Source: Endomicrobiia bacterium
Lineage (GTDB): Bacteria > Elusimicrobiota > Endomicrobiia > DTEH01
Length of the DNA stretch: 38,157 nucleotides
Assembly: GCA_039630545.1 (NCBI GenBank)
Contig: JBCNUU010000010.1
Span: 1 to 38,157, forward strand
Reading direction: 5' to 3'
Of the stretch, positions 914 through 37,681 are shown one piece after another (the stretch's first letter is position 1; every line of letters begins with the position of its first letter). Position numbers and translations under genes: made by a program. The notes beneath the pieces were generated by a model, which searched no databases, had not been told where the DNA came from, and was given only the letters and a program-made list of their open reading frames with translations.

Positions 914-2050
914 TTATCTTCTTTCAAATCTTTCATAAATCTGAGAACTTCCTCCTGAGGATGTCTCAATACCTTTAATAGCAAGCATAAGATCCTCAGG
1001 ACTGCTAGCAGCCTGAAGGGCATCTTCTAAGCTGATTTTTTCTGCTTTAAATAGCTCTAAAAGAGCCTGGTTGAATGTTTGCATACCATAATGTTTACCT
1101 TGTTTAATTAAGTTAAAAATATCACCAAAAGCTTTTTCTTCAATACATTTTTTTACTGCTGGTGTAACTACTAATACCTCAACTGCAGGAATTAAACCAG
1201 GCCTGTCTTTTCTTTTTATTAATCTCTGAGAAATAACTCCCTTTAATGTATCTGCTAACTGAAGTCTTACTTGATTTTGTTGATGTGGTGGAAAGATGTC
1301 TATTATTCTATTTATTGTTTGAATAGTATCAACAGTATGCACTGTGGAAAGTACAAAATGACCTAGTTGTGCCGCCGTTAAAGCTGCCTGCATTGTTTCT
1401 AAATCTCTCATTTCTCCAATTAAGATAACATCAGGATTCTGTCTTACTACATGTCGCAAAGCAGAAACAAAAGAACTACTATCATATGGTATTTCTCTTT
1501 GAGAAATTATAGATTTTTTGTCTGAATGAATAAATTCAATAGGATCTTCTATGGTCACAATATGTACTGAACGTGTAGAATTAATATAATCAATCATACT
1601 AGCCAAGGTAGTTGATTTCCCTGAACCTGCAGGACCTGTCACAAGAACTAAACCTCTCGGATTTTCTGCAAGTTTATAAACTACTTCTGGTAATTCTAAT
1701 TGTTCTTTCGGTGGGATTTGTAAAGGTATGTTTCTTATTACTATATTTACTACCCCTCTCTGATAAAATATATTCATTCTTAACCTTGCTAAATTCTCAA
1801 AATTATAACCAATATCACATTCCCTTTCTATTTCAAATCTTTTTTGTTGTTCAGGGTTCATTACATAATAAGCAAAATTTTTAATTTCTTCAAAAGAAAC
1901 AACATCTTCATCGTTTAAACCAAATAATACTCCATCTTTTCTTACATATGGTATTGAATTACTTCTTAAATGTAAATCACTCCCTTTTATTTCTATTATA
2001 AATCTTTTTATTATTTTTATTATTTTACTTATATTGTCTATCTGTGGCAT
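914..2050 (-). CDS. pilT: Type IV pilus retraction ATPase, PilT/PilU family
   Basis: GSDLHL N-terminus, Walker A GPAGSGKSTT, Asp box TIEDPIE, Walker B PDVILIGEMRD, His box STVHT, GMQTFNQAL. Confidence 0.92.
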   Translation of the reverse strand: MPQIDNISKIIKIIKRFIIEIKGSDLHLRSNSIPYVRKDGVLFGLNDEDVVSFEEIKNFAYYVMNPEQQKRFEIERECDIGYNFENLARLRMNIFYQRGVVNIVIRNIPLQIPPKEQLELPEVVYKLAENPRGLVLVTGPAGSGKSTTLASMIDYINSTRSVHIVTIEDPIEFIHSDKKSIISQREIPYDSSSFVSALRHVVRQNPDVILIGEMRDLETMQAALTAAQLGHFVLSTVHTVDTIQTINRIIDIFPPHQQNQVRLQLADTLKGVISQRLIKRKDRPGLIPAVEVLVVTPAVKKCIEEKAFGDIFNLIKQGKHYGMQTFNQALLELFKAEKISLEDALQAASSPEDLMLAIKGIETSSGGSSQIYERFERR

Positions 2051-5247: not shown

Positions 5248-6172
5248 ATTTCCTTAAAGACAGTTCCACTATTTCTCTTACAAGTTGTGGGAAATCTATT
5301 CCAAAGAATCTTGCTGACTCAGGAAACAAAGAAGTTTCCGTCATGCCTGGAATTGAATTTATTTCTAAAACGTATATTTTATTAGTATTTTTTTCTAAAA
5401 TAATATCAACTCTACACATCACTTCACATCCGACACTAAGGGCTGCTTTTTTTGCTATATTTTCCATTTCTTTATATATACTTTTTTCTACTTTAGCTGG
5501 GATAATATGTGTGGAACCACCCTTTTTGTATTTTGAGTCAAAATCATAGAATTTATTTAAATTCGGTATTATCTCTACAATAGGTAAAACTTTATCACCA
5601 AGAATTGGTACTGTAAACTCTCTACCAACTATAAATTTTTCTACTATAACTTTATCACTATATCTAAAAGATACCTTTAAACCCTCAAGATATTCACTTC
5701 TATTTGTCGCTAAACTTACTCCTATAGTAGAACCTTCATCTACAGGCTTTATTATTACAGGAAATCGAATTTTTAATTTGGTATTTAAAGAATTTTTATC
5801 TAAAAGCTGCCATTCCGGAGTTGGAATTTTATTTGCTACAAAAATATATTTAGCGTAATGCTTATTCAAACATATCGCAGAAGATATAGCATTAGAACCC
5901 GTATATTTTATTTTAAGTGTATCTAAAAGTGACTGCAGAGTTCCATCCTCTCCAAATTTACCATGTAAAGCAATAAACACCATATCAACTTTTTGTTTTT
6001 TTAGCAGTAACAACTTCTTCAAACAATCTGTTTTGTTGATTTCAAGAAGCTTAACATCAAAATCAGAATATTTGCATAAATTCATATATACTGCTTTACC
6101 TGTTTTAAGACTTATTTTTCTTTCAGATGAAAATCCACCATATAGCACGACTATTTTTAATTTTTTTTTCAT
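5240..6172 (-). CDS. ddl: D-alanine--D-alanine ligase
   Basis: GGFSSERKISLKTG, LHGKFGEDG, KPVDEGSTIGV, FYDFDSKY, LEINSIPGMTETS. Confidence 0.97.
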   Translation of the reverse strand: MKKKLKIVVLYGGFSSERKISLKTGKAVYMNLCKYSDFDVKLLEINKTDCLKKLLLLKKQKVDMVFIALHGKFGEDGTLQSLLDTLKIKYTGSNAISSAICLNKHYAKYIFVANKIPTPEWQLLDKNSLNTKLKIRFPVIIKPVDEGSTIGVSLATNRSEYLEGLKVSFRYSDKVIVEKFIVGREFTVPILGDKVLPIVEIIPNLNKFYDFDSKYKKGGSTHIIPAKVEKSIYKEMENIAKKAALSVGCEVMCRVDIILEKNTNKIYVLEINSIPGMTETSLFPESARFFGIDFPQLVREIVELSLRKYG

Positions 6173-8864: not shown

Positions 8865-10055
8865 TTAACCTATTAACACAGATATAAATTTTAAATATTT
8901 AGTTTCTTCAAACATACAACCATATATAGGGTGATCTAATGATTGAGTACCACTATATATTATAAATCCTTTTTGCCTATTTTTCAACATACATTCTATT
9001 ATTATTTTATTTATTTCCTCCTCTGTTAGATGTCTTGAACAAACAGAAAAATTAAAAATACCATCTTTTTTAGTAATTTTTAGCAGGTTTTTTACCATAT
9101 TTTTGTATTTTTTTATAGCACTTTTTTTATCTTTTTTGGATTTTGTGAATGAAGGTGGATCATATATCACTATATCAAATTTTTCTTTATTTTTTTCTAA
9201 AAACTTTTCAACATCCTCTTGAATAAATTCAACTTTTCCTTCTAAATTATTTAATCTGGAATTTTCTTTAGCTAATTGAATCGCATACGAAGAAGAATCT
9301 ATACCTATAACTTTTTTGGCTCCAGAAATCCCAGCTATTATTCCAAATCCTCCTGTATAACAACATAAATCTAAAACCACTTTATCTTTAACTATTTTAG
9401 AAATAAACTCTCTATTAGAAAGTTGATCATAATAAAATCCTGTCTTCTGTCCATTAAATACATCTACTACAAATTCACAATTAAAATGAGTTATTTTTAC
9501 TAAAAAATTAAAATTTTTTTCCTTACAGAAAACTACTTCTTTATTCTGAGGTGCTTTTTCAATATCTCTGTGGTAAAAATCATTTCTTATAATTATACAA
9601 GAGACAGAAAAAATATCTAACAGTGCATTTATAATTTCCTCTTTAAAAATTTCCATTCCATAAGAATAAAATTGTAGCACAAAAACATCTCCATATCTGT
9701 CAATTACCACTCCGGGTAAATAATCACTCTCTCCATATACCAACCTACAATACTCTGTGTTTATCCCCAAACTTTTTCTTAAATTTAACGCCATTTTGAT
9801 CTTATTTATAAAAAAATCTTTATTTATTTTTTCATTTTTGTCAACAGACAAAACCCTAAGCGCTATAAGAGAATAAGGATTATAAACTCCTTTGCATAAA
9901 AATCTATTTTTGTCATCATATAACTCGACATAACCTATCTCCTTAGGTGCATCTTCTTTTTTAATTTCATTAGAAAAAATCCAAAGATAACCATTTTCTA
10001 TACGATTTTTATATTGCTTTGTAGTAAATAAATGATTTATCTTCATATATATCAT
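8865..10055 (-). CDS. rlmI: 23S rRNA m5C1962 methyltransferase, RlmI family (PUA plus class I SAM methyltransferase)
   Basis: GYLWIFSNEI, RLVYGESDYLPG..IDRY, GQKTGFYYDQ, VLDLCCYTGGF, DPPSF, DHP, ETKYLK. Confidence 0.88.
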   Translation of the reverse strand: MIYMKINHLFTTKQYKNRIENGYLWIFSNEIKKEDAPKEIGYVELYDDKNRFLCKGVYNPYSLIALRVLSVDKNEKINKDFFINKIKMALNLRKSLGINTEYCRLVYGESDYLPGVVIDRYGDVFVLQFYSYGMEIFKEEIINALLDIFSVSCIIIRNDFYHRDIEKAPQNKEVVFCKEKNFNFLVKITHFNCEFVVDVFNGQKTGFYYDQLSNREFISKIVKDKVVLDLCCYTGGFGIIAGISGAKKVIGIDSSSYAIQLAKENSRLNNLEGKVEFIQEDVEKFLEKNKEKFDIVIYDPPSFTKSKKDKKSAIKKYKNMVKNLLKITKKDGIFNFSVCSRHLTEEEINKIIIECMLKNRQKGFIIYSGTQSLDHPIYGCMFEETKYLKFISVLIG

Positions 10056-15031: not shown

Positions 15032-16483
15032 TTAAGGAACAGGTAAATATATAACAAAAGTAGCGCCTTTACCTTTCCCTTCAGACATCACTGTAATTTT
15101 ACCTTTATGATGCAATATAATATCTCTAGTAATAGAAAGACCCATCCCAGCAAATTTGTCTTTACTTTTTGTAGTAAAAAATGGCTCAAAAATCAATTTA
15201 AAATTTTCTTTTTCTATTCCACAACCAGTATCTTGAACTTCTACAGCAACATATTTTTTTGAACTATTTGCTTCTTCATCTAATATTGTAGTATATGTTC
15301 TTATTTTAATAAAGTTATTTTTATTTGTTGTATTTTCTGAAATTGCCTGAATTGAATTATTTATTATATTAAGAAACGCCTGTTGTATATGAGGAACTGA
15401 AACTTTTAGTTTTGGTAATTTTTCATCTAACAAAGTTTGGATCTCTATATTATTTGCTTTAAGTTCACTATCAGCAATAAATAAAGTACTTTTTATTACA
15501 TCATTTATATCTACCTCACTATACTCATATTCTTTCTGTCTAGAAAATTTCAAAAGTGTAGCCACGCTTTCTTTGCATCTTAAAGCAGCTCTTTCTATTT
15601 TTTTAACATGTTCTATTAAAGGAGAATCTGCCGGAAGTTTCTCTAACAAAATCTGTGCTTGACCTAACACTCCAACTAAAGGATTATTAAGTTCATGTGC
15701 AATACCTCCTGCCAATTGCCCAATGTTAGATAATCTATCCATCTGTAAAATTTGTGTCTGTAATGTTTTTAAGCTATTTACCATATGATTAAAAGCTGAA
15801 ATCACTTCTGAAAATTCATCTTTAGTTGAAAAGTCTATAGTTGTATAATTACCTTTAGACAAACTATCAGCAAATCTCACTATGATCTTCAAGGGATTTA
15901 TCAGAGAGTTATATACTTTTACTCCGTAGTTGAAACTAATAAATAGAGAAAAACCTATTACAATAAATGAAATAACCCAGCTTAGAACATATAAAAATTG
16001 AATATTACTTTGTAAAGAATTTATCTGTTTTATGCACATACTTTTTTCTTTATTTATATTATTTGTAAATATTTCATATGCCGAAAGGAAATCATTCATT
16101 GCTATGTTTATTTTCTTAATTCTGTCTTTTTCATTAAATATCTTCTCAGCAATGTTTAACAAAACACTATATTCTTTTTCTACATTACTATAAGGCGTTT
16201 TTTGAATATAAAGATTTATAATTCCTTTAATATGAGTGGTTAATAATACAAAGTTTTCTTTTTCTTTTTCTTCTTGAAGCAATATATAATAATCAAAACG
16301 TAATTTTTGAAATCCAACGGTTTGGATAATACTTTCTAACAATCCCAACCTATCTCTCATTTCTACATATCTTATAAAATTTTTCTGTTGAAGATATAAA
16401 CTCAACACTAACCATAATATTAAAGTAAAAATTAATACTACAAAAACAAAAAATATCATTCTTAATTTCTGTCTTATAGTCAT
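15032..16483 (-). CDS. Membrane sensor histidine kinase (TM-periplasmic-TM-HAMP-HisKA-HATPase, NtrB-like)
   Basis: Two TM segments, HAMP (DEFSEVISAFNHM), H-box IAHELNNPL, N-box NIINNS, DTGCGI, FEPFFTTK, GMGLSI. Confidence 0.93.
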   Translation of the reverse strand: MTIRQKLRMIFFVFVVLIFTLILWLVLSLYLQQKNFIRYVEMRDRLGLLESIIQTVGFQKLRFDYYILLQEEKEKENFVLLTTHIKGIINLYIQKTPYSNVEKEYSVLLNIAEKIFNEKDRIKKINIAMNDFLSAYEIFTNNINKEKSMCIKQINSLQSNIQFLYVLSWVISFIVIGFSLFISFNYGVKVYNSLINPLKIIVRFADSLSKGNYTTIDFSTKDEFSEVISAFNHMVNSLKTLQTQILQMDRLSNIGQLAGGIAHELNNPLVGVLGQAQILLEKLPADSPLIEHVKKIERAALRCKESVATLLKFSRQKEYEYSEVDINDVIKSTLFIADSELKANNIEIQTLLDEKLPKLKVSVPHIQQAFLNIINNSIQAISENTTNKNNFIKIRTYTTILDEEANSSKKYVAVEVQDTGCGIEKENFKLIFEPFFTTKSKDKFAGMGLSITRDIILHHKGKITVMSEGKGKGATFVIYLPVP

Positions 16484-16519: not shown

Positions 16520-17236
16520 CTATGTTCTTGAAATTATAATCTCTATACGTCTATTTTTAGCTCTATTTTCTTCAGTATCATTGTTCACAACAGGTTTATG
16601 TTCTCCATAACCTGCTATAGCAAATCTTTCAGGTGGTAAGTTCTTAACTTCTGTAAAATACCTCATCACAGAAATTGCTCTTGCAATAGAAAGTTCCATA
16701 TTATTTGCATATTCTTTTGTTCTAATAGGAACATTATCCGTATGACCTTCTATTATTATTAAATTTGTTGAAGGAAGTGTAGATATCAACTCAGACAAAT
16801 CGTCTAAAACTTTTTTAGCGTTCTCATCTAAGTCTGCCCTACCTGAAGCAAACAATACTGCTCGCTCTGTAAACATAATCCGAATTTTCTGTGCAGTAAT
16901 GTTTACCTGTGCTGCTTCAGACAGCCCTCTTTTTTCCATGTATTCTTTAAGTTTCTGTGCAAATTCTGTCTCTTTTTCTCTTTTTTCAAGCTCTTTTTTT
17001 AACTTTAAATCTAAGTTAGCAACCTGAGCCTGTATTTTATTCATTAAACGTTCATAATTAATATCATTAGAAAAGTAAGTGTAAGCATATAAGACAAAGA
17101 AAAATATCATCAAAAATGTCATAAGATTCCCATAAGGTGTAACCCAACTTTCGGCATCTATCTTGTAATTATCTTCATTTCCTAAAATTTCTAATTTTGA
17201 TTTTATTGTTCTTTTCAGAGTAGTTTTATTATTCAT
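16520..17236 (-). CDS. motB: MotB/PomB-family stator subunit, second copy, with Asn at the conserved ion-binding Asp
   Basis: TM motif WVTPYGNLMTFLMIFFFVLY; OmpA-like PG-binding domain LFASGRA, EGHTDNVPI, NNMELSIARA, GYGEHKP, NRRIEI. Confidence 0.88.
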   Translation of the reverse strand: MNNKTTLKRTIKSKLEILGNEDNYKIDAESWVTPYGNLMTFLMIFFFVLYAYTYFSNDINYERLMNKIQAQVANLDLKLKKELEKREKETEFAQKLKEYMEKRGLSEAAQVNITAQKIRIMFTERAVLFASGRADLDENAKKVLDDLSELISTLPSTNLIIIEGHTDNVPIRTKEYANNMELSIARAISVMRYFTEVKNLPPERFAIAGYGEHKPVVNNDTEENRAKNRRIEIIISRT

Positions 17237-17240
17237 AAAA

Positions 17241-17908
17241 CTATTTTTTAATAATTTTTATCTCTATACGACGATTTTTTGCCTTATTTTCTTCTGTATC
17301 GTTTGGTGCCACCGGCCTATATTCACCATACCCAACACATGAGATTCTTTTTTCTTCTATGCCTTCTTTTATTAAATAATCCCTCACAGAAAAAGCCCTA
17401 GCAGCAGAAAGCTCCCAGTTAGACTTATACTTACCTCCGTAAATAGGGGTATTATCTGTGTGCCCTTCTACTACTATTTCACTAGTAATGGATTTTAAAC
17501 TTTCTGCCACTTCTTTAAGAACAACTAAAGCGGTATCTTTAAGTTCTGCTTTACCTATATCAAATAATACTGGAGAAGGTAAATTTATTACAATTTCTTC
17601 TTCTTTTACCTCTACAGTTGCGATATCTTTAAGCTTTTTTGACAGCTCATCTGTTTGTTCTTCCACTATCTGTTGCTGAGTAACTTCGATTTTCTTACCT
17701 AAATTTGCTAATGCTCGCATAAGCTGTTCTCTTTTTGAAGCACTTAGCCTTGTAAACGCAAATAATATCAAAAAAATAACGCCAGGTTAGTAGACATATC
17801 TGAATAAACTGTTCGCCAGATATTCAAACCTTGTTTTATTTCCTCACTTTCAGTAATTTCTTCTTGGATTTCTTGTTCAATTTCTTCTAATCTGTTTTTT
17901 TCTTCCAT
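17241..17908 (-). CDS. motB: MotB/PomB-family stator subunit, first copy; frameshifted by one missing base in the A7 run at 17770-17776
   Basis: ATG at 17908 reads MEEKNRLEEIEQEIQEEITESEEIKQGLNIWRTVYSDMSTNLALFF then stops. One extra T joins it to LILFAFTR... (ORF 17241-17771), giving 222 aa with EGHTDNTPI, SNWELSAARA, GYGEYRP, NRRIEI. Confidence 0.88.
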
Positions 17909-18716: not shown

Positions 18717-20230
18717 TTATTTCTTTTTTTCAATTACTTCTGGTTCTATAGTAAAACTTCTTTGTCTTTCTATCTGTTCTTTTATAAATTTACTTCTATC
18801 TATTGTAATTTCACCAGCATTTAATAAATCACGAATAGTTGCAATAATTTTTTCTGTTCAGTTTTTATAACTTTTTCTCCAACTTCACCTAAAAGGTCCA
18901 TCTGCTCTGCTAACATCGCACGCCCACCTTCTGTCAGACAATCCATAACTTTATTTTTTATTTCATCTGAAGCACCTTTTAAAGCTATTGCCAAAGAAAT
19001 TCCTCTCCTTTGGATTTCACGAATAATTTTTTGAAGTGTTGTTTTATCAAGAAATAAAATATCTTCAAATAAGAATATTTTCTCCCTCAATTTTTCAGCT
19101 AAAGATGGATTTTGAATAGACAAAGTTTGCAAGATATCCTCTTGAACATCTTTGTCTGCTTGATCTAATAAGGATAAAAAGTATTCTTCACCTCCTATAC
19201 AATAGTCAATTCTTGACTTTATATTATTTTCAATTTCCTGGACTTCTTTAGGATCTGGAAGTTTAACAGAAGCAAGTTCTAAAGCTACTTTTGCTTGAGT
19301 TTTTTGATCTAACATCATCATAAATTCTGAAACTAAATCAGGAGGTAAATAATTTAATACAAGTGCTATAGTGGAAGGTGCTTCGTCCTTTATAAGATAC
19401 CATAAATTTTTAAGATTAGACCTATTTATAAAATCAAAAAGTTTCCTCTGTGTTTTCTCTTCTTTTTTTCCACCCACAGTTAGTTCAAATGTACCTCCTC
19501 CAAAACCTCCTTGAGGAGCTGGCAAACCCGGAATCTCAACACCAGGTAATAAGCCAGTCTGAGTTTGTCCTGAAATTTCTGTTTTCTCAGTACTTCTAAG
19601 TCTAGCATCTGCTTCTATTCTTAACTGGACAGCTTTAACTATGGTTTTAAAGAAATGAGTAACAGGACCAAATAAAAATAAAGCAATTACAAAAATTATA
19701 AATGGAATATATAAATGAGGTAACATTTGTTCTAATATCATCTGCCATGTAGGTGTTTTTTGAAACTGAATCCTTGTTACATTAATAGTATCTCCACGCA
19801 TTGTGTTTAAACCTAAAAATGAAGGAAGTTCTGTTTTTATTCTATTTACTATATTTTCTGGTAAACTTACATCTACTGCTACATTGATAATAATTCTATC
19901 TATTACAAGTTGCATAGGTAAATTAGTAGCAGGATTTGTTATCGGAAGATATGAATATGTAACACCAGGTAGATATTCTTCTTCTCTAATATACAACCCA
20001 GGGTATTGCTGCTTACTTAAATCTATGTTGCTTGCAGGTGTCTGTTCTGGAGTTTTTATTTCTACAGTTACTAATACGACAAAATTTTTACTTCCTATTA
20101 TTTTTAAAACTATGTCCTCAACTTTCTGCTGGATTGATTTTTCAAGATTAATTTTTTCTTCAGTTAAAGTTAATGTAAAACTGTGGGATATTATTACCAA
20201 GAGAATTAATGTTAGTGCTATCTTTTTCAT
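18717..20230 (-). CDS. fliG: Fusion protein: signal peptide/anchor, FliF-like ring-building domain, TM helix, FliG middle and C-terminal domains; frameshifted by one missing base in the T6 run at 18848-18853
   Basis: FliF RBM3-like LEKSIQQKVEDIVLKIIGSKNFVVLVTV...IDRIIINVAVD...LGLNTMRGDTINV; TM at aa ~173-190; FliG-like FDF..EAPSTIALVLNYL, GG linker, IFLFEDI, LAIALKGAS. One extra A restores QKKIIATIRDLLNAGEI (FliG terminal helix) and extends to a stop at 18717 (504 aa). Confidence 0.85.
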
Positions 20231-33617: not shown

Positions 33618-34445
33618 TTACCTACTTTCTAAAAATTTTTTCAATTTTTCTAAAACTCTTTTTTCTATTTTTCTTACATACTCCGCTGAAATATGCAAAA
33701 TTCTACCTATTTTTCTATATGCCATTTTTTTCCTATTCTTTGAAAAATTCTGATACCTCAATTTAATAACAGCATATTCTTTCTCAGTCAAAATTTTCTT
33801 AAAAGCATCTTTTAAGGTTTCATAATCAGACATCTTTACCAACAAATCTTCTGGTGTCAAAGATTTATCTGATAAAGTATCTTCTATTCTAAAATCTTCA
33901 TTTATTGGATTATCAAAAGAGCTAACATTGGAAAATATATCTAATGTATGTAAAATTTTCTTCATTTTATGATATGAAATATTTAACTTTTTGCTTATCT
34001 CTTTTATTGTTGGAGAACGGCCATATTTTTTATATATGTCCTGCCACTGTTGAATCCATTTTTTAATCATCTTTAAAGTAGACACAGGCAACTGCACAGC
34101 AGCAAATGGTTTTTCTTTTAAATAAAGCTGAATAGATTGTTTGATCCAATAAGTAGCATAAACAACAAATCGGTGCTTTTTTTGAGGTTTATACCTGTTT
34201 ATAGCTTTAAGAAGACCAATTGTTCCTTCTTCAACCAAATCTCCTAAATCTAAATTTGAGGTTATATATTTTTTGTAAAAACTCTTAGCTATATTCACCA
34301 CCAGCCACATGAAAGAATTAATTATAAAACTTTTTATCTTTTCATCGCGAGTTTTTCTATATTTGTTGATTAACTCTCTTAGTGTTTTTTCATTTATAGG
34401 TTTATAAGTCTCTATTATCTGTTGAATATTTTCTGGAATCTCCAT
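33618..34445 (-). CDS. Alternative sigma-70 family factor (RpoD/RpoS/RpoH-like regions 2-4, no region 1.1)
   Basis: LVVNIAK, DLVEEGTIGLLKAINRY, RFVVYATYWIKQSI, region 3 GRSPTIKEIS, region 4 LTEKE..VIKLRY...IG..L.IS.EYVRKIE. Confidence 0.9.
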   Translation of the reverse strand: MEIPENIQQIIETYKPINEKTLRELINKYRKTRDEKIKSFIINSFMWLVVNIAKSFYKKYITSNLDLGDLVEEGTIGLLKAINRYKPQKKHRFVVYATYWIKQSIQLYLKEKPFAAVQLPVSTLKMIKKWIQQWQDIYKKYGRSPTIKEISKKLNISYHKMKKILHTLDIFSNVSSFDNPINEDFRIEDTLSDKSLTPEDLLVKMSDYETLKDAFKKILTEKEYAVIKLRYQNFSKNRKKMAYRKIGRILHISAEYVRKIEKRVLEKLKKFLESR

Positions 34446-34451
34446 AGATGA

Positions 34452-34733
34452 TTAAAATTTTATTATAAAGTCATCATAGAATGTTGGATTTATTTTTTTA
34501 ATTTCTACTTTTTTAACTACAGCATATGGATGCTCTTTTTTTATTCTTTCAATAAATCTATTAACTTTTTCTTCTTTATCTGACTCAACTATTATTTCTA
34601 CTGTACCGTCCTGGTTATTTTTTACATATCCAGAAAGATTTTCTTCTTTTGCAATGTCTTTTACAAACCATCTATACCCTATACCTTGAACATGTCCATA
34701 TATTGTTAATTGAAATGCTACTCTATCATTCAT
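34452..34733 (-). CDS. acyP: Acylphosphatase
   Basis: GHVQGIGYR, GYVKNNQDGTVE. Confidence 0.95.
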   Translation of the reverse strand: MNDRVAFQLTIYGHVQGIGYRWFVKDIAKEENLSGYVKNNQDGTVEIIVESDKEEKVNRFIERIKKEHPYAVVKKVEIKKINPTFYDDFIIKF

Positions 34734-34735
34734 AC

Positions 34736-36724: not shown

Positions 36725-36746
36725 AAATATACAAATATACCAAAAT

Positions 36747-36822
36747 TCGGGGTGGCGGGATTTGAACCCACGACCTCATGGTCCCGAACCATGCGCTCTT
36801 AAGCCAACTGAGCTACACCCCG
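36747..36822 (-). tRNA. tRNA-Pro (anticodon CGG)
   Basis: Acceptor CGGGGTG/CACCCCG, D-stem GCTC/GAGC, anticodon arm CATGG-TT CGG GA-CCATG, T-arm GTGGG-TTCAAAT-CCCGC; CCA not encoded. Confidence 0.95.
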
Positions 36823-36841
36823 TCAAAATAAACTTAAATTG

Positions 36842-36870
36842 AGAATATAAAATTTATAATTAAAAAACAA
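36842..36870 (-). promoter_or_regulatory. Candidate sigma-70 promoter for tRNA-Pro and downstream genes
   Basis: TTGTTT (36870-36865), 17 nt, TATTCT (36847-36842), about 20 nt upstream of the tRNA; chance matches are common in AT-rich DNA. Confidence 0.35.
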
Positions 36871-36938
36871 GTATCTATACGGCAAGAAAATCTATAGGAG
36901 AGAGTTTTTATGCGAACTATTTATATCACCTAATTTTT

Positions 36939-37106
36939 TTACCTTGTTTTTATACACCCACTAGAAGAACTTTTATCGTGGTATCTATACTCCTTCCAAA
37001 CCCTATACGTTGAAAACTTTGTAAGTTTCACACACATATAAATCGTATGATGTTTAACCTTAAAAAACCTCGCAACTTCATTTATAGTAAAAAACACATC
37101 ATTCAT
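36939..37106 (-). pseudogene. Excisionase-like helix-turn-helix (HTH_17) protein, probably degenerate at the 3' end
   Basis: Not in the ORF track. SD GAGGTG then MNDVFFTINEVARFFKVKHHTIYMCVKLTKFSTYRVWKEYRYHDKSSSSGCIKTR (55 aa), matching the xis-like pattern T..EVA....V...TIY...K......YRV....R. Confidence 0.65.
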
Positions 37107-37142
37107 TTTTATCACCTCTTTTCTTTTTAGTTTTTGCTATTA

Positions 37143-37171
37143 TTGACATTTTCTTTGTAGTTTTGTATTTT
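37143..37171 (+). promoter_or_regulatory. Candidate sigma-70 promoter for the repressor remnant
   Basis: Perfect TTGACA (37143-37148), 17 nt, TATTTT (37166-37171). Confidence 0.45.
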
Positions 37172-37211
37172 TTGTAATAATTAATTATTTAGTTTTGTTA
37201 TATTAAGATAG

Positions 37212-37681
37212 ATGGGAATAGTGCAAGCCGTGATTTCGCAGTGGGAGAATGGCATCTACTTCTTCACTAAAAACCATATCCAAGCTTGCAAAAATCTTAA
37301 ATAAACCAATCTCATATTTTTTAGAGGATACAAAGACAACAACAAAAGAAACTGAGATCTACAGCGTCAAGGAATTTTCCTAAGAAGGCAATCATAAAAG
37401 GTGATCACAAAAATTATTTTGTCCTAAAAGTCATCTCTGATAGTATAATTGGTGAAGACATCAAAGAAGGTTATGTCTTAATCGTCAAAAGACAATCAAC
37501 AGCCGAAGATTGGCAATATTGTTATTGTATGGATAGAAGGCAAAGGTGCTACTTGTAAAAAATTTAGAAAACATAAAGACAAAATATTGCTTGAATCAGC
37601 AAACCCTAAATATTTAAACCTATTGAAAACAAAAATTTCATAATTTACGGAAAAGTTATTTATAAGGAGGGTAAGGTATGA
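37212..37681 (+). pseudogene. Phage CI/LexA-like repressor (Xre HTH plus S24 peptidase), multiply frameshifted
   Basis: Fragments in alternating frames: GIVQAVISQWENG / SLKTISKLAKILNKPISYFL / YFVLKVISDSIIGEDIKEGYVLIVKRQSTAED / GNIVIVWIEGKGATCKKF..ILLESANPKY / KPIENKNFIIYGKV. Confidence 0.8.

Follow-up and report, generated by a model that had tools for sequence, protein, structure and literature searches.

To our knowledge, FliG and MotA have been described in no setting other than the flagellum, whose rotor and stator they form. The charged residues K264, R281, D288, D289 and R297 of FliG are important for torque, and its EHPQR motif binds FliM. In the PorLM/GldLM system of Bacteroidota, the work of an ion-driven inner-membrane motor of the 5:2 type is put to use at the outer membrane, jointly with PorV-type barrels and giant adhesins bearing a C-terminal domain (CTD), and in Myxococcus the AglRQS system combines a MotA/TolQ-type channel with two different MotB/TolR-type partners in non-flagellar surface motility. 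A Salmonella FliF-FliG "deletion fusion" without the FliF tail and FliG-N has reportedly been made. We know of no motility apparatus described in Elusimicrobiota beyond type IV pili. The available parts of the sources place PorLM/GldLM (PMC8986121; 10.1101/2022.01.28.478170) and AglRQS (PMC12204202) among the 5:2 motors, and those of another describe an engineered Vibrio FliF-FliG fusion that formed MS (membrane and supramembrane) rings in E. coli and Salmonella fusions that were flagellated and motile (PMC10941966). Here, a stretch of 38,157 nucleotides (the window) from an Endomicrobiia bacterium of the phylum Elusimicrobiota (GenBank assembly GCA_039630545.1, contig JBCNUU010000010.1) was analysed, in which one gene joins a FliF-like ring-building motif 3 (RBM3), a transmembrane (TM) helix and the FliG middle (M) and C-terminal (C) domains. 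The sequencing runs containing this stretch carry the label hot springs metagenome. The results supported a natural FliF(RBM3)-TM-FliG(MC) fusion that, in the absence of a flagellum, operates together with a flagellar-type stator of its own. A literature search from which subscription journals were mostly missing brought up engineered FliF-FliG fusions (PMC10941966) and no report on this family; no natural FliF-FliG fusion, no non-flagellar FliG with MotAB and no PorV-FliG link were found.

The N-terminal domain was compared with solved structures by means of a profile (A2) that was made from the N-terminal 215 residues of the window protein and its counterparts at related loci (32 sequences). 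The profile matched the FliF chains 9yh6 (E 4.3e-8), Vibrio 8z5s over residues 270-487 (E 1.9e-6) and Salmonella 6scn over residues 241-281 and 381-471 (E 6.5e-6); the two Salmonella pieces corresponded to the two halves of RBM3 plus the second TM. The value for SpoIIIAG was 0.032. In the AlphaFold2 model of the domain (pLDDT, the predicted local distance difference test, 77), the mature N-terminus led straight into the RBM3 helix, and membrane helices started from aa 174. All 18 Foldseek matches of this model at E<=1e-3 were FliF MS-ring/RBM3 chains. By VIA-align, run all against representatives, FliF was found with Z of 13.7, 12.9 and 12.5, followed by an unrelated fold at 9.6, SpoIIIAG at 8.4 and EscJ at 8.2. 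The original prediction had assigned an RBM3-type ring motif to this domain, and the profile search, the model and both structure searches all returned FliF RBM3; in the structural comparison that it proposed with FliF RBM3, SpoIIIAG and the SctJ type, FliF was the best match by Foldseek and by VIA-align, and SpoIIIAG and EscJ were much weaker by VIA-align. In Pfam, YscJ_FliF_C (PF08345) matched aa 109-156 with 22.2 bits (profile positions 96-147 of 147). Among 44 relatives scanned, 18 matched this family at or above the cut-off and 9 more below it, and in some the whole profile was matched (P0109 with 34.3 bits, P0116 with 36.1 bits).

The second half of the motif contains IDRIIINVAVD and RGDTINV, and P88, G89, R145, G146 and D147 are invariant or nearly so; the sequence motifs named beforehand (LPGV, IDRIIINVAVD, RGDTINV) are all present. 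Between the two halves lies an insert at the position of the FliF beta-collar, which in Salmonella comprises about 110 aa (residues 271-381). The insert, of about 49 aa, could be aligned to Vibrio FliF with long gaps only, and no full-length beta-collar was found. The best-conserved motifs of the whole domain, YPG and EE.LPG.TYSY.P, lie in this insert, and the residues Y76 P77 G78, E84 E85, L87 P88 G89 and T91-Y94 are invariant among orthologues. As a monomer it was modelled at low confidence by AlphaFold2. The earlier statement that most of the beta-collar is lacking was therefore right about the length, but the element is conserved in a shortened form and not simply lost.

No match to RBM1/2 (YscJ_FliF, PF01514) was found by Pfam in the protein or in its genome, as expected from the original prediction. 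The signal and membrane segments were called by hydropathy and not by a dedicated signal-peptide predictor; hydrophobic stretches were observed at aa 2-24 and aa 164-198, the latter followed by four Lys/Arg within 20 residues. The N-terminus consists of MKK, a hydrophobic core and small residues ahead of a conserved LTLTEEK, the sequence of the segment itself being variable among orthologues. The TM helix carries an LFLFGP motif, in which F185, G188 and P189 are invariant, with a K/R-rich stretch behind it. The linker at aa 200-262 contains 11 Gly and 4 Pro in 63 residues and runs directly into FliG_M, leaving no FliF tail of the kind that binds FliG-N. Thus the predicted signal-like N-terminus was borne out by hydropathy and by the orthologue N-termini, and the predicted single TM and Gly/Pro-rich linker by hydropathy and composition. 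Such an arrangement fits a protein whose N-domain is exported and whose FliG part stays in the cytoplasm.

The FliG half matched the solved FliG_MC of T. maritima (1lkv) with E 1.4e-32. The Pfam match to FliG_C covered aa 369-465 with 82.3 bits (cut-off 23.3), and the final helix lies beyond a frameshift described below. With Pfam scores above the cut-offs for both domains, the presence of FliG-M and FliG-C was confirmed. The only match to FliG_N had 19.8 bits, below the cut-off of 25, and overlapped the FliG_M/C region. For the orthologue P0002, the NCBIfam fliG equivalog model TIGR00207 gave 122.2 bits against a cut-off of 226.7. Because the match covered only model positions 107-330 of 338 with 122 bits, FliG-N was regarded as absent, as had been proposed, and the FliG equivalog score as unreached. 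Compared with E. coli FliG, the fusion keeps E125, P127, the glycines 194/195 (GG hinge), F234/F236 of the MF.F motif and K264, and has lost H126, Q128, R160, R281, D289 and R297. Of the EHPQR motif, only the equivalents of E125 and P127 remain. On the torque helix, K264 is kept and D288 is replaced by E, R281 by G, D289 by Q and R297 by G. The torque-helix region is nevertheless the most conserved part of the fusion protein and is invariant within the family: across 21 orthologues with identity down to 45%, 95 columns were invariant, among them LTEG..AMLAE on this helix.

A maximum-likelihood tree of FliG_MC (74 rows, LG+G4, unrooted) was calculated with branch support by the Shimodaira-Hasegawa-like approximate likelihood-ratio test (SH-aLRT) only; two rows had been dropped beforehand for missing or short matches. 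All 43 fusion rows were separated from all 31 canonical FliG rows, including 4 FliG from flagellated Elusimicrobiota, by a branch with SH-aLRT of 100. This unrooted tree shows only that the fusions are not an offshoot of the canonical FliG in the sample, the four sequences of flagellated Elusimicrobiota among them.

The open reading frame (ORF) of the fusion gene as assembled encodes 469 aa (18821..20230, minus strand) and stops at 18821. The last 43 codons are found in the -1 frame (18717-18848, minus strand), and the gene end at 18717 lies 104 bases past the ORF stop. The -1-frame tail, IIATIRDLLNAGEITIDRSKF...KKK*, agrees with the C-termini of 19 of 20 orthologues, the remaining one (P0017) being truncated. 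The complete frame-shifted reading is IIATIRDLLNAGEITIDRSKFIKEQIERQRSFTIEPEVIEKKK*. The orthologues are in frame and 497-520 aa long (n=20). The fusion gene as assembled carries a one-base deletion in a run of six A. A programmed frameshift was also considered, but a standard X XXY YYZ heptamer that would suit both tRNAs is missing at the site (cag aaa aaa tta), and the orthologues are simply in frame with one extra A, which led us to prefer the deletion. The gene delimited by the original prediction, 18717 to 20230, is therefore a real fusion gene, but its end is reached solely by a -1 shift in the A6 run. Because 20 full-length orthologues and 87 cluster representatives have the N-domain in common, the fusion is not a chance arrangement. 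Relatives in public databases are annotated as "FliG C-terminal domain-containing protein", "tetratricopeptide repeat protein" or "flagellar motor switch protein FliG"; the first of these labels names the FliG C-terminal domain only, as had been foreseen for automated annotation.

The genome containing the window has 1.60 Mb in 82 contigs and is 95.5% complete. Profile searches of it gave no match for FHIPEP (FlhA), YscJ_FliF, FliP, Flagellin_N or FliMN_C, each of which gave matches in 4 control genomes. The absence of FHIPEP and FliP matches at this completeness agrees with the earlier inference of a ring with no housing for a type III export gate. By the FliMN_C search there is no FliM/FliN to complete a C (cytoplasmic) ring, and the one-polypeptide MS-plus-C ring proposed beforehand is still a hypothesis. 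Of 401 Elusimicrobiota genomes, 137 gave a match to the N-domain (among them 110 of the 293 genomes of good quality), as did 74 of 123 genera, often with two to four copies per genome; it was found in none of the 89 genomes of one family (f2) and in one of the 118 of another (f20). FHIPEP was present in 9 of the 401 genomes, 4 of which also had the N-domain, so that FlhA was not matched in 133 of the 137 carriers. That Elusimicrobia lack flagellar genes is also stated in the available part of a published comparison (PMC7031533). Named relatives found by sequence were all Elusimicrobiota/Endomicrobia metagenome-assembled genomes (MAGs), except for one MAG labelled Omnitrophica. In the ESM Atlas, look-alike clusters with the same three Pfam families or an N-terminus of similar structure were seen in Pseudomonadota, Balneolota, Bacteroidota, Bdellovibrionota and others; from these unconfirmed leads, the range may extend beyond one phylum.

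Directly downstream of the fusion gene, motA, motB and a second motB follow on the same strand. The same order was found in 10 of 11 related loci with room for it, and in the eleventh the stator genes are adjacent but convergent. MotA matched solved flagellar MotA/PomA over its full length (E 4e-43) and keeps the equivalents of P173 and P222 of E. coli MotA, with Gln at the equivalent of E98. MotB1 keeps the channel Asp in 10 of the 10 sequences examined. In MotB2, Asn replaces this Asp (PYGNLMTF) in the clade of the window and in L008 and L011, with PYADFM in L007, L009 and L012; more distant orthologues have Asp in both MotB proteins. A stator was thus recognised by a MotA fold with channel prolines and by MotB proteins with plug, Asp and peptidoglycan-binding domain, the Asn of MotB2 excepted. 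The sequences suggest that it may be a MotB1/MotB2 heterodimer with a single protonatable Asp. MotA, MotB1 and MotB2 all score under the NCBIfam equivalog cut-offs. The Zorya anti-phage system was considered and rejected: the fusion and MotA gave no PADLOC match, and the MotB-like proteins matched generic ZorB models only. Beside motA-motB-motB, an unannotated protein that measures 436-615 aa and is matched by no Pfam family was noticed in L007 (5694-7004), L009 (11996-13843) and L011 (11732-13546); it has a homologue in the genome of the window (contig C12, 156727-158295) and could be a further component.

In relatives outside the genus of the window, two more genes belong to the operon and stand ahead of the fusion gene. 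The contiguous order giant protein, PorV-family protein with tetratricopeptide repeats (TPR), fusion, motA, motB, motB was observed in L004, L008, L009, L011 and L012; L004 comes from the same family as the window (72% identity), and L007 is cut within the second gene (PorV-TPR). The L008 operon also has two small inserted genes (5733-6086 and 9406-9789), both from the "23S rRNA intervening sequence protein" family: the first lies between the giant and PorV-TPR genes and the second between the fusion gene and motA. The giant protein has about 2,000 aa (1,887-2,075 where complete), with fibronectin-III and BNR-propeller repeats and a C-terminal immunoglobulin-like domain; its C-terminus was matched weakly by the type A sorting domain (18-20.5 bits, cut-off 23) and, also weakly, by the C-terminus of PorU. 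The PorV-TPR protein, of about 550 aa, matched the PorV/PorQ family model NF033709 with 95.7-119.7 bits (cut-off 90) in all four cases tested. In its model (pLDDT 87.5), a 14-strand barrel is followed by a 47-residue helix (315-361) and TPR repeats (365-547). The top Foldseek matches, 8gl6_F and 6h3i_F, each belong to a type IX translocon complex; FadL-type barrels came next. Counted by eye, there are at least 38 contigs on which a listed fusion match has a listed barrel match of the same orientation no more than 3 kb upstream of it.

The genome of the window encodes a second fusion, and the family forms two paralogous branches there. The paralogue (631 aa; C12:56392-58287, L051 7393-9288) comprises an RBM3-like domain, a TM, FliG_M, FliG_C and a C-terminal TPR; fusions of this TPR-bearing branch are widespread across the phylum. 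Ahead of the paralogous gene come those for a PorV-TPR paralogue and for a small protein that ends in a type IX sorting tail (Por_Secre_tail, 23.0 bits, at the cut-off), and behind it that for a 1,603-aa protein with a weak C-terminal TPR match only. A second flagellar-type MotA-MotB pair, whose MotA keeps the E98 equivalent, was found on another contig (C34:12029-13543, L049 7029-8543) between a leuA-like gene and an ECF (extracytoplasmic function) sigma module, with no FliG-like gene nearby. This pair may serve the paralogous fusion.

Table. Coordinates of the fusion gene, its parts and the genes downstream of it in the window
Feature	Position	Strand	Evidence
Whole FliF(RBM3)-TM-FliG(M,C) fusion gene	18717..20230	minus	ORF and orthologue alignment
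Signal-peptide-like or signal-anchor N-terminus, aa 1-20	20171..20230	minus	Hydropathy and orthologue N-termini
RBM3-type motif, first half, aa 22-59 (helix 22-45, strand 50-59)	20054..20167	minus	Profile, model, structure search
Insert at FliF beta-collar position, aa 60-108, ~49 aa	19907..20053	minus	Alignment, profile, model
RBM3-type motif, second half, aa 109-156 (strand 109-120, helix 125-139, strand 148-154)	19763..19906	minus	Pfam, profile, model, Foldseek, VIA-align
Transmembrane helix, aa 172-195	19646..19717	minus	Alignment, model, hydropathy
Amphipathic helix, then Gly/Pro-rich linker, aa 200-262	19445..19633	minus	Alignment, composition
FliG middle domain, aa 275-341	19208..19408	minus	Pfam 55.4 bits (cut-off 25)
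FliG C-terminal domain, aa 369 to end	18717..19126	minus	Pfam, structure profile, alignment
A6 run, frame break site	18848..18853 (+ strand T6)	minus	One base more required by orthologues
motA, flagellar-type stator A subunit, 254 aa	17911..18675	minus	Pfam, structure profile
motB1, MotB-like, conserved Asp (YSDM) and OmpA domain	17241..17908	minus	Pfam, alignment
motB2, MotB_plug and OmpA	16520..17236	minus	Pfam, alignment
HAMP-HisKA-HATPase sensor kinase	15032..16483	minus	Pfam

Elsewhere in the window, a 275-aa sigma-70-family factor with regions 2, 3 and 4 (33618-34445, minus strand) and a PilT-like T2SSE ATPase (914-2050, minus strand) were noted, and 36725-37677 and 34446-34735 have no ORF of at least 100 aa.

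The reading that we prefer, at slightly better than an even chance, is that the fusion is the rotor subunit of a non-flagellar MotAB-driven envelope machine with its output at the outer membrane. After export of the N-terminus, the RBM3-type domain would lie in the periplasm, one helix would pass through the inner membrane, and the flexible linker would hold the FliG M and C domains in the cytoplasm. The periplasmic domains would line up next to one another and form a ring, in the manner of RBM3 in the flagellar MS ring with its roughly 33-34 FliF subunits; with one FliG fixed per subunit, FliG-N and the FliF tail would therefore not be needed. Stators made of MotA and the two MotB-like proteins would use ion flow and push the FliG C-domain. 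Because there is no RBM1/2, no export gate and no rod, the output would go outward and not into a rod: the 47-residue helix and the TPR of the PorV-family barrel could receive it in the periplasm, and the barrel could act on the roughly 2000-aa surface protein with its type IX-like C-terminal tail. The result might be movement, secretion or anchoring of an adhesin. Formation and turning of the ring and the hand-over to the PorV-TPR barrel and the giant protein are suggested by the known behaviour of RBM3 and FliG and by gene order. A more specific version, in which an unrecognised class of machine has a homo-oligomeric fusion ring spun by MotA5(MotB1.MotB2), with no gate, rod or filament, and in which the periplasmic ring engages the helix and TPR stalk of a PorV-type barrel so as to move or deliver a giant adhesin, is tentative, and we would give it clearly less than an even chance. 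Such a machine would be a gliding or secretion motor independent of the flagellum. Since the FliG clade of the fusion lies outside all canonical FliG sampled, the fusion could also represent a sister lineage of the flagellar rotor that has survived, one that either predates the union of that rotor with type III export or stands outside it.

Several observations weigh against a rotor. Three of the five charged torque residues (R281, D289, R297) are changed and E98 of MotA is Gln, so that, judged from these residues, the rotor-stator interface differs from the flagellar one and might fail to transmit torque. The YscJ_FliF_C score of the window protein lies below the cut-off of 23.8. FliG alone formed no stable ring in engineered fusions, according to the available part of the source (PMC10941966). 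In the genus of the window, the PorV-TPR and giant genes are not beside the fusion gene; in its own genome they are on another contig (C12:170967-179705, L055 4968-13712). PorV-family genes with TPR occur in 328 of 401 genomes of the phylum, several per genome, and part of the barrel-fusion adjacency could reflect this abundance. Finally, the fusion and three partner genes are disrupted, and the machine may not work in this organism.

Some of these points are accounted for by the main rival, a non-rotating docking or signalling platform, which is unlikely in our estimation. Here, FliG would dock MotAB channels or sense ion flow at a fixed scaffold, and would inform the adjacent histidine kinase or hold the envelope together with no sustained rotation. 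A HAMP histidine kinase does adjoin motB2 in the window and in L003-L006, but it is not at the operon in L007, L008, L009 and L012, and its membership of the system is unproven. According to the available part of PMC7564593, MotA R90 and E98 pair with FliG D289 and R281; the pair MotA-E98/FliG-R281 is missing on both sides here, as a platform would allow. A clean charge covariation (MotA E98 to Q with FliG R281 to G) would fit the window pair, though suggestive only, and was rejected: the paralogue also has Gly at R281, yet the second MotA (contig C34) keeps Glu. The loss of the channel Asp from MotB2 in the clade of the window and the lack of FliM/FliN to stabilise a FliG ring also fit a platform. 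Against it, the channel prolines of MotA are kept, as is the Asp of MotB1, and the high conservation of the torque-helix region fits a mechanical interface better than a passive dock.

It is quite unlikely that the system only energises type IX-like secretion or attachment, as PorLM/GldLM would, and moves no cell. This would be in line with the PorV/PorQ-family neighbour above its NCBIfam cut-off, with the type A sorting and PorU matches at the C-terminus of the giant protein, and with the small protein before the paralogue at the Por_Secre_tail cut-off; the sorting-domain matches of the giant protein itself are, however, below theirs. No match for SprA_N or GldM_1st was obtained in the genome of the window, a result of little weight since the controls were weak (SprA_N matched none of them, and GldM_1st one, below the cut-off). 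An energiser also overlaps the rotor that we prefer and differs from it in output only.

The disrupted genes make up four of the six of the system: the fusion, motB1, the giant and the PorV-TPR gene, each with a frameshift or a stop. In motB1, the frame is lost because one base is deleted from a T7 run (+ strand A7, 17770-17776), through which the orthologues read ALFFLILFAF. The giant gene has an in-frame TAG at L055 10137-10139, where a congener has Gln, and in the PorV-TPR gene the frame shifts within an (AT)n repeat near L055 13209-13230. An alternative genetic code was rejected, as the other apparent in-frame stops were alignments past natural gene ends and the giant gene alone has a true internal TAG. 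When ORFs of at least 150 aa from about 198 kb of a same-genus genome were compared with the genome of the window, none of 50 randomly placed orthologous genes and none of 11 genes flanking the system was disrupted; two flags among the random genes were tandem paralogues. The window has 279 A/T runs of at least 6, only two of which break a frame by ORF tiling (with orthologue comparison for 16.5-26.2 kb only).

Logan contigs from the same study, which give the alleles present and not allele frequencies, were also inspected. An in-frame motB1 allele was found in X1 and X3, and the X2 contigs end at the motB1 run. For the fusion, an in-frame allele with the extra base was found in X3 (a sister sample), and the A6 form in X1 and X2 (the probable source sample) with word depths of 127.6 and 19.9. 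That the frameshifts are errors of assembly and the gene is intact in the organism is very unlikely: both window lesions are in homopolymers and the longer runs do occur in these contigs, but the source sample keeps the A6 form of the fusion, so few of the A/T runs break a frame, none of the 61 other genes is disrupted, and, of the two further lesions, the first replaces Gln by TAG and the second falls within (AT)n. All this gives the lesions the look of real alleles that cluster in this system, and suggests that the system is being lost or switched on and off in this population, with intact copies nearby. A functionless, decaying remnant of a lost flagellum is highly improbable: the interrupted genes and the flagellar members of the phylum (the 9 of 401 with FHIPEP) would suit it, but intact orthologues exist in many genera with the 95 invariant columns, there are two to four paralogues per genome, the fusion clade stands apart from the canonical FliG found in flagellated Elusimicrobiota, its partners in the operon are non-flagellar, and intact alleles of both frameshifted window genes are present in sister samples.

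If the rotor assignment is true, a conserved, phylum-wide FliG-MotAB module without flagella would mean that the torque pair can work apart from type III export, rod and filament, which bears on how the flagellar motor was assembled from separate modules. A rotor of one polypeptide plus stators would be a simpler object for structural and single-molecule study. The operon link suggests a second, independent route besides GldLM by which ion-motive energy reaches the outer membrane, and hints at surface motility or adhesin handling in Elusimicrobiota. The frameshifts and stop found in one hot-spring population together with intact alleles may be a natural case of such a machine being switched off or lost.

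Compared with known systems, the laboratory FliF-FliG fusions of Salmonella and Vibrio (PDB 8z4d/8z4g) are alike in having the FliF ring part and FliG in one polypeptide, and the A2 profile matches the 8z4d chain with E 7.5e-6. They keep RBM1/2, the full beta-collar, both TM helices, all or most of the FliF tail and FliG-N, in a complete flagellum, whereas the natural fusion has none of these parts and no flagellum. With the canonical rotor of FliF and FliG (and FliM/FliN) driven by MotA5B2, the Elusimicrobiota system shares the RBM3 fold, FliG_M/C, the GG hinge, F234/F236, K264, an acidic residue at 288 and MotA/MotB. It differs in having no RBM1/2, FliG-N, EHPQR motif, FliM/N, export apparatus, rod, hook or filament, in its two different MotB-like subunits, and in a FliG that forms a separate clade and scores below the fliG equivalog cut-off. 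SpoIIIAG (5wc3) and SctJ/EscJ/PrgK have the same alpha-beta-beta-alpha-beta ring-building fold, and SpoIIIAG also has an insert between the two halves; their matches are much weaker than those of FliF, and they have no cytoplasmic FliG domain and no adjacent stator. AglRQS has neither a FliG-like rotor nor an RBM ring, and the stator linked to the fusion is of the flagellar MotA/PomA type. The likeness to PorLM/GldLM lies in the operon partners of the relatives, a PorV-family barrel and a giant protein with a CTD-like end. The Bacteroidota transmission element, GldM/PorM, contains no FliG- or FliF-like part; here, that element would be FliG and RBM3 rings.

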